DNA from: a virus
Lineage: Duplodnaviria; Caudoviricetes
DNA: 41,783 nucleotides
Virus record (IMG/VR): IMGVR_UViG_3300023275_000006
Span: 1 to 41,783 of that record
Strand: one strand, 5' to 3'
Shown here: piece by piece, positions 27,168 through 41,783 of the stretch
Numbering within the stretch: the stretch's first letter is position 1
How the letters are laid out: every line of letters starts with the position of its first letter
Notes under the pieces: generated by a model
What the model was told of the DNA's origin: nothing
The model's database searches: none
The model's input: only the letters and a program-made list of their open reading frames with translations
Made by a program: the position numbers and the translations under genes

Positions 27168-27752
27168 TTAATCATTTGATTCTGGTTGATTTGCTTGACG
27201 CTCCCATTGTTGACGGCGTTGTTCTTCATATGCAGCGAGTACCGCGCCGCCAAACATGATTGCCCCCGCATTCTCCCAAAGCCCTTCTTCTGGTTCTCGA
27301 ATGATTCCTGTTTGAAGAATCTTTATGGCATCCATCGCATGTGCTATTAGGTGCTCCAGTCCTGCAATCACCCAAGCCTTAGTTAGCGCGGATTCATAAT
27401 TCATGGCGCCTGCATTCCAAGCTGAAGGCCCATGCTTGATTTGGCCAAGTTCAAACCGTTCAGCCATTGCATTGAGGGCTGCTTTAGGGATTAGCGAGTA
27501 TTGTGGTTTCTTGGTCCGTGTTACGTTGCCTGGGAATTTGAGCATGGGTTCGTTAGTGAGTCCTGCTCTGACATCTCCTCGTAAGATTCTGTCATGCATA
27601 TCAAATGTTGCTTTTTGTTGTGCAGCTCTCTCCATTTCCCGCCCGCACGTCTCCTTGTGAACTATGTAATCTGAGTAATCTTGAAACATCTCTTGACAAC
27701 TCCCACAAATGTAGAAGTGTCCTTTGCCTTGTATGTATGTTTTCTGTGCCAT
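27168..27752 (-). CDS. dATP/dGTP diphosphohydrolase-domain (DUF5664-like) protein with N-terminal Zn finger
   Basis: KPQYSLIP..AL..MA.RFE.G..KHG..AW motif; CGSC-x12-H-x3-C. Confidence 0.75.
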   Translation of the reverse strand: MAQKTYIQGKGHFYICGSCQEMFQDYSDYIVHKETCGREMERAAQQKATFDMHDRILRGDVRAGLTNEPMLKFPGNVTRTKKPQYSLIPKAALNAMAERFELGQIKHGPSAWNAGAMNYESALTKAWVIAGLEHLIAHAMDAIKILQTGIIREPEEGLWENAGAIMFGGAVLAAYEEQRRQQWERQANQPESND

Positions 27753-27764
27753 CTTTGTACCTTT

Positions 27765-30212
27765 CTATACCTTAACTTCCTGCATATCATACCAATTCTC
27801 ACCTATTGATGCTTCGGCCGGAATGGTGAGAACTATATCTCGTTTCAATGATCCATTTCTAAAGTCGATGGGAGTTTCGACAGCTTTTTTATGTTTATGG
27901 ATGTAATCATATTCCTGTCCCCTTGGTACCTCAACCATGATACCGTCGTGTGCTTCCGCCAAGAGCCGTGCATACCGAGCAGCGTTAAGTACTTCTGGAA
28001 GGCAAAATTTGGTTTGGTCCCCGACAATGCTTTGAGGTAAATAAGATATCGCTTCGTTCTGTATATTTTTATCTTGTGTTCTTCCAAAGAAATCTCTCCT
28101 GCGCCCGTTTGGTGCTATGAGCATCCTGTTAGTTTTAATTTCTGTTATTACGTCACGATGGAAAACTCCCACAATTTCTGGTTGGAATCCATGAATCTTA
28201 GCGAGCACTTTCTTGCAGAAGTTAATGTCATATCCGGTCATTGCATAGAGTCTTTCTGGACCCATATTTCTCTCGGCGGCATGGCGGACAGTCTTTGCTA
28301 AATGGTATCGTTCAACACCATCTACGAGTACTCTTTTCTTTATTTCTTCAGGAGGACAGTCAAAGACCCAAGAGCCTGTAAGTTTGTGTATACCAATACC
28401 ATTGTCAAAATACCTAAGTATATCGAAATTATTAGCGAGCACAGTATCAACCCGCGCCTCAGCGGAGGCCAAGTCGATTTCGACGAATACGTATCCATAA
28501 CTTGGTACAAACATGAGCCGAATGTCCTGACCATAAGTGATACCGTCAACGACATAACCGTGCTTGCCAATAGTCTGGAGAGAATGTCCCAATGATTTGA
28601 GTTCATATTTTCCTTTTTTGTTGATTATGAGTAATTGATCTGAAGTCTCGCCCCCTGAAGTGCGGCCATTTTTAGTACCTGTGAGATTGAACTCCCCGCG
28701 GAATCTCTTATCTGGGAAGAGTTCTAGATTGACGATTTCTAATACCTTGTGGTGTTTACGACACGCCTTGATTGTTTGGAGTACGTCGATACCAATTTCA
28801 CGCCCGCAGTTCTTGGGCACCCCATGAAGGATCATTAAATCAAGGGATTCCTCATCTGCACCCATTACGCCCCGTTGATGGCGATTATAGCCTAATTCTT
28901 CAAACACAAGATTCTTCATTTGTGTAGAACTGAGGGGATTTAGAAGTGGCTTATTTACTAATTGCTTCAGCTTTTCTTTGTAGATGTTGTAAAGAGTAGT
29001 GTACTTAGCCCAGACCTTGAGGCTCTGTTGTTCGTCAATCCTAATGCCATTACACTCCATCGTTTTGTATATGGGCATGAGTTGAATGAGCTTATCGTAG
29101 ATGTGTTTGACACCACCTTCGTTAAGTTCTTCTTGTTGCTTTGTGTATATCTGATGGGTAGCAAGAGAATCCTTAGCACAATAAAGATAGAGCCGTTCTC
29201 GATTGTGGAGATTAGGGTTGAACTCCTTTCCTTCATCTTTGAAATACGGCAAATCTGTGTAAATACTAGTTAAGAAGCCGAGGTTTTTAGGGTATTCTGG
29301 ATAGATACACCCGGCCGCTAACATGGTATCGCCAGAAATGTTGTTAATGAGGAATTTGAAACGATCTAGAATCTTAGTGTCGTACTTGATATTCTGATTG
29401 ACCTTTGGTAAAAGTGATGCAAGCATCTTTGCTACATAACTAAGCATCAAGGCCCGTTGATCGCGTGGGATTGAATGATCTAGGATTGGTACGGTTACTG
29501 ATTCAAAGCCATCGAAGCAAAAGCTAATACATGTGGGAATCTGTGCCCATGTTTCGATGTCGAATACTACGAACTGTGCAGTCTCGAAATGGCGATTGAA
29601 ATAGTTGCGGAGTGAATCTGCTGTGCGTGCTACCCATATTTTGTACAGATTATCAGGTATCGGCCCGCCTCCGCTGTTCTTAGCTACTTTGCCGAAATCT
29701 AGAACAGAGAGATTTTTAAGAGATTGATCTTGATTGATGTACGGGTAGGGACCAAGAATGGGGAGAACTTTGTAAACTGGAGAAACATTAAGTTCGATCG
29801 GCTTGTCGGGGCGGGTGTCTCGGGAAATGTTACTTGGCAGAACTGAGCCGCGGAACTTTCTAATACCTTTGAGATTTGTGAGTGCTTGGAAACTCAGCTC
29901 ACCCATAGGTATTAAAAGTGGCACGTCTAGTTGGCGAATCTCATTCTCGATTAGCTTTGTTGTCCACTCGGCAACTAGCTGGAGATTGGCTTTGTCTTTA
30001 TGGTAATCATGACCTGAGTTGATTGCTTGTTCTTTGAATAGGCTTGTCAGATAGAAGTTATCAATATGAAGCCCGTTGTGCGTCATCATGTCGATAAGAG
30101 TATTGCGTGTGAGTCCGCTTAATGCGTAGCCCGTAGCAAGATCCTCTTTTAATGGAATATCGCCAATGATGATTGCGGTTGGGCTGGCTGATCCATGACC
30201 CATGATTGCCAT
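27765..30212 (-). CDS. polA: Family A DNA polymerase with N-terminal UDG-like and 3'-5' exonuclease domains
   Basis: ExoI FDIET, ExoII NIKYD, ExoIII YCAKDS; motif A DLASAEAR, motif B AKTVRH, motif C AHDG. Confidence 0.93.
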   Translation of the reverse strand: MAIMGHGSASPTAIIIGDIPLKEDLATGYALSGLTRNTLIDMMTHNGLHIDNFYLTSLFKEQAINSGHDYHKDKANLQLVAEWTTKLIENEIRQLDVPLLIPMGELSFQALTNLKGIRKFRGSVLPSNISRDTRPDKPIELNVSPVYKVLPILGPYPYINQDQSLKNLSVLDFGKVAKNSGGGPIPDNLYKIWVARTADSLRNYFNRHFETAQFVVFDIETWAQIPTCISFCFDGFESVTVPILDHSIPRDQRALMLSYVAKMLASLLPKVNQNIKYDTKILDRFKFLINNISGDTMLAAGCIYPEYPKNLGFLTSIYTDLPYFKDEGKEFNPNLHNRERLYLYCAKDSLATHQIYTKQQEELNEGGVKHIYDKLIQLMPIYKTMECNGIRIDEQQSLKVWAKYTTLYNIYKEKLKQLVNKPLLNPLSSTQMKNLVFEELGYNRHQRGVMGADEESLDLMILHGVPKNCGREIGIDVLQTIKACRKHHKVLEIVNLELFPDKRFRGEFNLTGTKNGRTSGGETSDQLLIINKKGKYELKSLGHSLQTIGKHGYVVDGITYGQDIRLMFVPSYGYVFVEIDLASAEARVDTVLANNFDILRYFDNGIGIHKLTGSWVFDCPPEEIKKRVLVDGVERYHLAKTVRHAAERNMGPERLYAMTGYDINFCKKVLAKIHGFQPEIVGVFHRDVITEIKTNRMLIAPNGRRRDFFGRTQDKNIQNEAISYLPQSIVGDQTKFCLPEVLNAARYARLLAEAHDGIMVEVPRGQEYDYIHKHKKAVETPIDFRNGSLKRDIVLTIPAEASIGENWYDMQEVKV

Positions 30213-37784: not shown

Positions 37785-39791
37785 TTACAATCGACTTGAA
37801 ACTACCTTCATCATAAATTCCCGCCACGTTGCCGGATCAGATTCTACGTGCCAATCATTGTCGATCGTTTGATGAATGATGTCACGCTTGGTTTCTACAA
37901 GATCATAGAAGAATTCATCTATTGTTCCGCGGGCCACAAGATACTCGACATTGGTGATTTTGTTTTCATTGTCCGGCCAGCGATCACCGAGCCATGATTT
38001 CATACGTTCCCGCATCATTGGAATGTCAGGATTGTAGAATCGTTTCTCGAACTGATCTTCGTAGGCTGATGACCACTGACGTTCAAGGATTAGGACGTTT
38101 TCTACATACCAGAAATCCATACCTACGCCGCCCGCCAACATGTTGATTGCACATACACGTTCCGGCGAAGTCATGAAATCCCGCATTATGCGATCTTTCT
38201 CTTTTTTAGAATCGAGGCCCGTGAGTGTTTGAATCGGAGAGCCGAATGCTAATTCAAGAGAATCCTTAACTACATGATGATGAATCCCTATGGCGTACTT
38301 GGTGTAATCCGGGGCTGAATCAATAGATTCTTCGATCATCTGTGCTGCAAATTTAGTCTTTGCGAGGCCGCAGATTTGACGGAGGATAGCAATTTCACCG
38401 ATGCTGGTACCACGGGTAAAATTAGACTTTATCATGTCTTCTTCTATCTTATCGAGCGTTTGGTTGTAGAGCTTCTTTAATGTATCGTCCTCAATAGCAA
38501 CTAGCGTGAAATTACGATTTAGGATCGGTAGTTCAGAGTAGACATCCTTATATTCGCGCCGTAAAACGTAGGGTTCAACGAAGTTACGAAATGTTTCGAG
38601 TCGATGTGGGTGGATTCTTGAGAATTTGCCAGTGTTATGATCTTGGATTAACCAATCCTTGCGGAATCTGTGGAGACTTGGAACCTTGTCCGGGGCTAGA
38701 ATATGAAGTGGGACGTAGTATTCTTCGGCGTTGTTAACGATTGCCGTGCCGGACATCATTACGATTCCACATTGTGACCGTTCGAGCACTGGGGCTTGGG
38801 AAGTCATAGAAACGTATGCTTCACAAACTGGGCATTTCGATGCTTTACGAATAGTCTTAATTGTGTTGCGGTCATCTACTTGGACGATAACTTTCTCAGT
38901 CCATGTGATTTTAGTGCTCTTAGCATTGCCAGATAAGACTAGATCAGTGATAACTTTTTGATCTTTCTGGTATTGCATGAATGTATCAGTCGTGCCACCA
39001 TGATCCGGGTGAGCTTTAAGAGCTGCGAGTTTCATAGCTCTGAGAACATCATCCCCGGTGGCCGCATCAGAGAGTCCGTATTTTTCATAAAGTACCTCAG
39101 ATTCATGAGTCCACGGGCAGGTGAAAGTGTACTCTTGTTCCGTTTCATGCTGCGAGATGTTATTGAGGAATTGTAGCAGGCCGCGAGTTCTTGCTGTGTC
39201 AGTATTTTTAAAACTGTGGGCCTCGTCAACGCAGACAACCTTGAGTTGTAGTTCTAAGAGTTTTTCAACCATGCTGTCGCCATTAGGTTCAAAGATTCTA
39301 CAATCACAAGGATCTTTGGCTTTGCCAACTTTCATACCGCATCGTCCAGAACAATCTTCGTGCCGTTCAGCTACGTGCCCGCATGATTTGCAACGCCCTT
39401 TACGACCGATGAGATCCATTGAAATGATGTACATATCAATTCCATCGGGGATGAATCCGTCTTGGGATTGAATGATGAAGCAACTAAGATTGGACTTGGA
39501 ATACCATTTTTTGATTTCCCGTGCCCATTGAAAGATGTTAGCGGGCTTGAGAACGATAAGCATGGGGAAACGATCATCACCGTTCTTTTTAGCTGAGGCT
39601 GCTGCTAGTAGGAATTGATTTGTCTTACCGAGCCGCATTTGATCCCCGAGGAAAGCATTAAATCCGATGGGATTCATGGGATGGCCATTGTATAGAAAAT
39701 CGACGCCTATGGCTTGATAATCGCGTGCGTGCATCGAATTATCAACTGAGTCGAGAACAAGAGGTTTCTTGATATATGGTCGTTGGGACAT
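37785..39791 (-). CDS. SNF2-type SF2 helicase with inserted Zn-binding modules and J-domain
   Basis: Q motif DYQ, motif I DQMRLGKT, II DEAH, III MSGTA, V AGGVGMD, VI QFEKRF; HPD motif at 39003-39011. Confidence 0.9.
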   Translation of the reverse strand: MSQRPYIKKPLVLDSVDNSMHARDYQAIGVDFLYNGHPMNPIGFNAFLGDQMRLGKTNQFLLAAASAKKNGDDRFPMLIVLKPANIFQWAREIKKWYSKSNLSCFIIQSQDGFIPDGIDMYIISMDLIGRKGRCKSCGHVAERHEDCSGRCGMKVGKAKDPCDCRIFEPNGDSMVEKLLELQLKVVCVDEAHSFKNTDTARTRGLLQFLNNISQHETEQEYTFTCPWTHESEVLYEKYGLSDAATGDDVLRAMKLAALKAHPDHGGTTDTFMQYQKDQKVITDLVLSGNAKSTKITWTEKVIVQVDDRNTIKTIRKASKCPVCEAYVSMTSQAPVLERSQCGIVMMSGTAIVNNAEEYYVPLHILAPDKVPSLHRFRKDWLIQDHNTGKFSRIHPHRLETFRNFVEPYVLRREYKDVYSELPILNRNFTLVAIEDDTLKKLYNQTLDKIEEDMIKSNFTRGTSIGEIAILRQICGLAKTKFAAQMIEESIDSAPDYTKYAIGIHHHVVKDSLELAFGSPIQTLTGLDSKKEKDRIMRDFMTSPERVCAINMLAGGVGMDFWYVENVLILERQWSSAYEDQFEKRFYNPDIPMMRERMKSWLGDRWPDNENKITNVEYLVARGTIDEFFYDLVETKRDIIHQTIDNDWHVESDPATWREFMMKVVSSRL

Positions 39792-41715: not shown

Positions 41716-41770
41716 GGGGTGTTTAAATCCTTCTGGGTTAAGCGAAATGCTTTACAACCAATAGAAAAAA
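41716..41770 (+). repeat. Right copy of degenerate terminal direct repeat
   Basis: 45/55 identities to positions 1-55; preceded by a poly-G run. Confidence 0.75.
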
Positions 41771-41783
41771 ACCTACAAGTTTA

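Follow-up and report, generated by a model that had tools for sequence, protein, structure and literature searches.

The replication of phage lambda uses DnaJ/DnaK, and the helicase of polyomavirus large T antigen belongs to superfamily 3 (SF3). Large T is a viral DNA motor with a built-in J-domain, which engages host Hsp70 and which contains the motif HPDKGG where the phage protein considered here has HPDHGG (PMC11720896, available part). It combines an N-terminal J-domain with an origin-binding domain and a hexameric replicative helicase (PMC11720896, available part), whereas in the phage protein the motor is of the SF2/SNF2 type and the J-domain is internal, optional and borne on an exchangeable cassette. 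The likeness is one of analogy, not of family membership, and implies no shared ancestry of the fusion, although the two proteins may work alike. The Rki protein of phage RB43 is likewise a phage-encoded type III J-domain, and it acts through host DnaK; unlike the insert in the 668-aa motor described below, it is a separate early protein that stabilises sigma-32, and the word helicase does not occur in the main text of the paper on it (PMC3486835). Class C (type III) J-proteins (PF00226) similarly join helices I-III and their HPD motif to an unrelated targeting domain, whereas the J-domain reported here is inserted in a zinc-ribbon knuckle inside an enzyme domain and is without helix IV and two of the helix II interface residues. 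SSO1653, a motor of the SNF2-Rad54 family, for its part lacks a ribbon between motifs II and III, its Walker A contains Gly and its motif VI keeps a second Arg, three points on which the phage protein differs.

A search of the literature found no fusion of a J-domain to an SNF2 motor; the survey of bacterial and phage J-proteins by Barriot et al. (2020), which lay outside that search, may list it, and the novelty of the architecture is provisional. The available portions of PMC3710099 and PMC12619734 describe no such fusion, neither 'helicase' nor 'SNF2' occurs in the main text or one supplement of PMC10410713, and the main text of PMC7824862, as far as available, mentions phage DnaJ domains and SNF2 helicases separately. 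The same search found no review of SNF2 insertion sites and, in the portions of the sources available, five passing mentions of DUF2786, a domain that is met again below. What follows concerns a real, selected and mobile J-domain in a phage SNF2 motor.

The virus record and its SNF2 motor

The whole stretch of DNA analysed, here called the window, corresponds to a virus record that is 41,783 bases long and has an estimated completeness of 99%. Its genes include those for a terminase, a major head protein, a Sak4-like protein, a PD-(D/E)XK exonuclease, a primase-like protein and a family A DNA polymerase with a UDG-like front. Window DNA is present in at least 24 runs from soil and leaf litter. 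In 15 of these at least half of the sampled words occur, two of the carrier runs may be its own source, and there is no RNA run among the listed carriers. Searches of the window for tRNAs and Rfam families gave zero matches. Annotated phages offer no close isolate for the helicase (11 records, 22-25% identity), and a scan of bacterial genomes for its relatives, covering 4 of 64 parts, gave one distant locus. An imperfect repeat of 56 nt (82%) lies near both ends of the record, at 1-56 and 41716-41771. The family A polymerase gene (27765-30212, minus strand), with its weak UDG-like N-terminal domain, is adjoined by a dATP/dGTP diphosphohydrolase-like gene (27168-27752, minus strand), a pairing whose sequences hint at modified-base metabolism.

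The motor gene and its landmarks are as follows.

37785..39791, minus strand: SNF2-family ATPase/translocase gene, 668 aa (protein P0001), from Pfam, PHROG 62 and a model match to SNF2 motors
39621..39644, minus strand: Walker A / motif I, in which Arg takes the place of the Gly of SSO1653 (sequence)
39300..39392, minus strand: optional Cys-rich finger before motif II, aa 134-164 (sequence)
39216..39227, minus strand: motif II, DEAH (sequence)
38742..38756, minus strand: motif III, MSGTA (sequence)
38025..38054, minus strand: motif VI, with Asn where SSO1653 has a second Arg (sequence)

P0001 matches Pfam SNF2-rel_dom (PF00176) at 72.8 bits, above the cut-off, and the helicase C-terminal lobe PF00271 at 19.3 bits, under it, and motifs I, II and III of the SNF2 family are present. 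Its best sequence match among solved structures is SSO1653 (PDB 1z63, E 7.6e-37), and the full-length model (mean pLDDT 86.7, pTM 0.80) matches CHD4, ISW1, CSB and SSO1653 in fold, with SNF2 motors at E about 1e-18. In 127 of the 138 members of the family set defined below, the Walker A Arg goes together with an Asn that replaces the second Arg of motif VI, so that the pair of motif VI arginines by which the SNF2 family is tested is not there; the outlier P0217 has both the usual Gly and the usual Arg. Judging from this pairing, the Walker A Arg may compensate for the lost one, as a relocated arginine finger. The ATPase may be weakened. ATPase activity of the motor is here an assumption, because the second motif VI Arg is missing from nearly the whole family. 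A Cys-rich stretch occurs at the place before motif II in 60 of 138 members, and an N-terminal Cys finger, absent from P0001, in 118 of 138.

A J-domain within a ribbon within the motor

The region between motifs II and III is made up as follows.

39105..39155, minus strand: first strand of the ribbon arm and its first knuckle, C225-x3-H229 (CPWTH at 39105-39119; sequence and model)
38907..39104, minus strand: J-domain insert of 66 aa, aa 230-295, with predicted helices at 231-237, 246-260 and 268-286 (sequence and model)
39003..39011, minus strand: HPD motif, aa 261-263 (sequence; invariant in 8/8 inserts)
38772..38906, minus strand: remainder of the ribbon arm, which includes its second knuckle, CPVC, at 38823-38834 (sequence and model)

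In the first-pass annotation of this DNA a J-type segment with HPD at 39003-39011 had been placed between DEAH and MSGTA and was thought to be mounted on a zinc-ribbon-type module. All of the motif positions agree, and the J-domain does lie within the first knuckle of a Cys-x2-Cys ribbon, a module shared by most of the family. The peptide quoted there comprises residues 234-281 of P0001. The J pattern is followed less closely than was then implied: HPD and helices I-III are found, with Met in place of the helix II Tyr, and the model of the window copy has no helix IV. The HPD tripeptide lies in the loop between predicted helices 246-260 and 268-286; its chance of occurring in 64 residues is about 0.003, and it is found anywhere in only 2 of 131 J-less relatives.

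When solved structures were searched for matches to the 55-aa insert, 34 sequences came back at E<=10, all of the DnaJ/Hsp40/auxilin type (best E 0.00083), including radial spoke protein 16, an Hsp40. Against a local J profile the window insert scores 37 bits (E 3e-12 within the family set). The Pfam DnaJ scan that had been proposed gave a divided answer, in that the excised insert reaches 16.9 bits against PF00226, below the gathering cut-off of 27.8, and whole P0001 gives no match, while four relatives pass. In the full-length model helices I-III occupy 231-286 between the ribbon strands, with block means of 71-91. Failure to fold as a J helical hairpin had been named as an observation that would speak against the assignment; the segment is predicted as helices I-III, and Foldseek ranks 1-13 with the segment model are all J-domain chains (probability 0.95-1.00, none at E<=0.001), with a best Z of 6.7 that falls within the range of common helical arrangements. 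An assembly artefact is rejected as the source of the insert, since contigs of other runs carry the region unchanged: that of run X3 covers 38400-39500 with zero differences from the window, and that of run X9 covers 38748-39500. The identification of the insert as a J-domain is supported by its fold, by the conservation of HPD and by selection.

Because SSO1653 is without such a module, the ribbon is itself an insert and the J-domain an insert within an insert. Strands 214-224 and 296-306 would pair and so hold the J-domain at a tip, the model predicts that this tip belongs to an arm that extends out from ATPase lobe 1, and C225, H229, C320 and C323 are likely to bind zinc. The first knuckle is C-x2-C in 98 of 109 plain rows of the family set and C-x3-H, followed directly by J, in 7/7 J rows and also in P0121; C-x3-H is found in two plain rows as well. 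Four helicases that have no J (P0020, P0049, P0074 and P0076) show C-x2-D at this place and are possibly J-loss derivatives or precursors.

Occurrence in the family

The homolog search gave 136 homologs, of which 120 were listed; in five of these 120, motifs II and III are separated by a stretch that includes an HPD insert. L025 is a further carrier, the one among 16 metagenome loci translated, and P0121 and P0122 raise the carriers to eight in all. A profile search of 1.84 billion representatives matched the whole segment in three proteins, P0002, P0121 and P0122, and a word search with aa 215-325 retrieved only P0001 and P0002. Among the best 120 of 139 matches of a profile search there were three new proteins, none with the HPD insert; the translated viral-contig helicases (9 helicase loci among 13 of 15 loci) had none with a J insert; and a feature search of the Atlas gave no usable match for either insert.

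The tree set of 138 rows combines 119 of the 120 listed homologs with five proteins from the profile search and 14 loci, and omits P0091 (which has an intein), the fragment P0121 and duplicate or partial loci. The homolog survey that had been called for thus finds relatives of both kinds, J being present in 7 of 138 rows (about 5% of the family) and absent from 131. The Pfam DnaJ cut-off is reached by four of the seven carriers scanned (P0004 at 47.5, P0006 at 40.3, P0038 at 55.5 and P0122 at 45.3), whereas P0002 and P0121 fall short of it, as does the window. Stand-alone viral J-proteins with the same HPDHGG loop are encoded on four unrelated contigs that were fetched through the J motif (L010:9953-10636, L013:10019-10405, L014:9986-10369 and L015:7472-7876).

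Conservation, selection and the face toward Hsp70

Loss of HPD from homologous inserts had also been named as evidence against a J-domain, and HPD is invariant in 8/8. The residues common to all eight are H, P, D, G and G of the loop, the Phe of helix III and two Ala of helix II, at a level of divergence at which six inserts are 24-59% identical, and the equivalent of K26 is K or R in 8/8. The window protein and L025 are identical at 647 of 668 residues. Over aa 234-286 they differ by 22 silent and 11 replacement changes (dN/dS 0.069, p 5e-8 against neutrality), the value outside the insert being 0.071, and in the HPD loop there are synonymous differences at the codons for His, Pro, His and Gly. 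On these codon comparisons the J insert is under purifying selection.

The face toward Hsp70 is less uniform. A preprint on DnaK-DnaJ assigns R22, Y25, K26 and F47 to the interface and cites Y25A as a change that costs growth (10.1101/2025.05.22.655504, available part), and K23, K26 and K51 are among coevolving contacts (PMC5519331, available part). In the window lineage, which comprises P0001, L025, P0121 and P0002 (4/8 inserts), Leu occupies both the R22 position and position 27, and Met or Ile occupies that of Y25, whereas K or R stands at the R22 position in 136, and Y or F at Y25 in 133, of 137 other J matches, a set fetched with a profile of these inserts and not a random sample. In the window protein, as mapped by HPD offset and alignment, L250 stands at R22 and M253 at Y25, K254 and F271 are the equivalents of K26 and F47, and K23 is kept as Arg. 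The other four carriers have an aromatic at Y25 and three of them Lys at R22, and they score 58-81 bits against the J profile versus 33-37 for the window lineage. Since the R22 and Y25 equivalents are lost in the window lineage and the aromatic and Lys are kept in the others, an activity on Hsp70 can be credited to the relatives with more confidence than to the window copy: stimulation of Hsp70 by the canonical relatives is quite probable, and for the divergent copy in the window the odds would lie only slightly on the favourable side.

Exchange of the ribbon between helicase lineages

On a tree of the motor from which the ribbon had been removed the J carriers occupy five separate positions, and a tree that holds them together as one group is rejected (p-AU 2.7e-6, 32 rows), which disposes of a single origin of J followed by vertical descent. 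A ribbon tree calculated without J (115 rows, 64 columns, weakly resolved) groups the seven carriers with one plain row at a support of 97. On a ribbon tree of 33 rows six carriers group at 88/81 with P0122 unplaced, and one origin is not rejected (p 0.49), a value that is no proof of it. P0006, a J carrier, shares with the J-less P0071 and P0068 an identity of 96% on one flank of the ribbon and 99-100% on the other, and of 37% in the ribbon itself, and the ribbon data reject its grouping with them (p 0.0017); the same test of P0122 with P0083 is not significant (p 0.27). Point mutation alone is excluded for P0006 by the 37% identity and the 57-aa insert between flanks that are 96-100% identical.

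Between the window and L025 silent divergence is 0.63-0.64 in J versus 0.17 elsewhere, and codons 301-360 are identical. One run contains the window allele and also a contig that shows 68 differences across 38886-39392; of these, 21 were compared and 20 agree with L025 (depth under 5). No J-skipping joint occurs among the contigs of eight runs, contig data being of a kind that cannot show absence. The simplest reading of these sequences is one insertion of J into a ribbon, after which ribbon and J together would have spread by recombination in the conserved flanks.

The arm is absent altogether from 5 of 138 helicases (P0037, P0070, P0087, P0090 and P0119), the three that were compared being 81-94% identical outside the ribbon to helicases that bear it. 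It also accommodates a second cargo, in that a DUF2786-like hairpin follows the second knuckle in 18 of 138 helicases with a patchy distribution (for example at aa 302-339 of P0081), a label that was set by pattern; of four such rows scanned with Pfam, three passed. DUF2786 also occurs in genes of its own in the neighbourhood of ribbon-only helicases (L032:7798-8469, L034:12687-13358 and L038:3768-4412), and the two of these genes that were scanned also have DUF7168. P0091, a family member of 988 aa, combines LAGLIDADG and Hom_end domains, which are intein-like, with DUF2786.

The proposed role and its alternatives

The first-pass annotation had seen in this protein a convergent design like that of T antigen. 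A fixed design of this kind is not supported: because J is rare (7/138), is missing from near-identical helicases and moves with the ribbon as a swappable cassette, it is an accessory. The reading preferred here, at a probability of roughly 0.48, is that J, as an optional accessory, brings the Hsp70 of the host to the motor on its DNA and so helps to remodel a DNA-bound complex. The J-domain, carried in a swappable and probably zinc-binding ribbon arm of a phage SNF2-type motor, would recruit host Hsp70 (DnaK) wherever the motor works on DNA, and the recruited chaperone would help to loosen a DNA-bound protein complex, which would itself be the client rather than the helicase or a bystander. 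The replisome, RNA polymerase and defence proteins, which the first-pass annotation had named, would be candidate targets. No other part of the protein is exchanged as much as the arm, which for this reason most likely faces a factor of the host, and the Hsp70 partner would be that of the host, because there is no phage Hsp70 among the scanned ORFs (42 with PHROGs and 24 with Pfam). Since 131 of 138 relatives are without J and five without a ribbon, Hsp70 would not be needed for the core job of the motor.

It is possible, if rather doubtful, that the ribbon is more generally an exchangeable tool arm loaded with recruiters of host factors, J in one allele and the DUF2786 hairpin in another; J would then turn the motor into a machine that tracks along DNA and delivers Hsp70 to pull RNA polymerase, nucleoid proteins or defence proteins off it, a counterpart of T antigen in a bacterial virus, built on a different motor. 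DUF2786 would serve as a further adaptor, so far unrecognised, through which a proteostasis or remodelling factor of the host is engaged.

It seems unlikely that the arm serves instead as a tolerant, early-expressed surface on which J diverts or ties up DnaK, in the manner of Rki or against a chaperone-dependent defence, with motor and J independent of each other. Several observations would suit such an arrangement: J is dispensable and passes between lineages by recombination, one run contains two alleles of it, and the arm is shared with a DUF2786-like cargo (18/138) that also exists as stand-alone genes near ribbon-only helicases. To these may be added that Rki, in the available part of its description, interferes with DnaK and is not a generic co-chaperone, and that an NLR-like defence protein needs DnaJ (PMC12619734, available part). 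A decoy could be a stand-alone protein, yet among 44 loci scanned in all there is no other J-domain in those of the helicase family, the only stand-alone J genes being those of the four unrelated contigs, and in 8/8 the insert keeps one site and the same Cys-to-His knuckle.

Less likely again, the domain in the window lineage may have become J-like, keeping HPD for a specialised Hsp70 or some other partner, so that only the canonical relatives stimulate housekeeping DnaK. The occurrence of hydrophobic residues where R22, Y25 and R27 would stand, in 4/4 proteins of the lineage, their low J-profile scores (33-37 bits against 58-81) and the long branch of the lineage on both trees point that way. 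T-antigen J-domains, however, can be species-specific, with identities down to about 35%, and still act on Hsp70 (PMC11720896, available part). The window lineage also keeps the equivalents of HPD, K26 and F47, and its HPD-loop codons change only silently.

A slightly lower probability still attaches to the proposal that J brings DnaK to the helicase itself, for folding, solubility or a switch of assembly state. J-domains act on clients held close to them; yet J-less helicases exist that are 96-100% identical outside the ribbon, and folding of the motor would for that reason not need J. That J is a functionless fragment which landed once in a tolerant loop is very improbable, for all its rarity (7/138) and dispensability, since a dN/dS of 0.07 equal to that of the rest of the gene largely refutes neutrality, the motif facing Hsp70 is the invariant part at 24-59% identity, and the cassette is found in five lineages.

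Meaning for phage SNF2 motors

The recruitment of host Hsp70 to a DNA-bound motor can be tested directly, because natural pairs of helicases (P0006 versus P0071 and P0068) are 96-100% identical except in the arm, and the same pairs provide a handle on the role of phage SNF2 proteins and on the binding partner of DUF2786. If J works in cis, a phage DNA motor would by itself aim host Hsp70 at DNA-bound complexes. The logic of T antigen and of the use of DnaJ/DnaK by lambda would then have been reached on an SNF2 motor.
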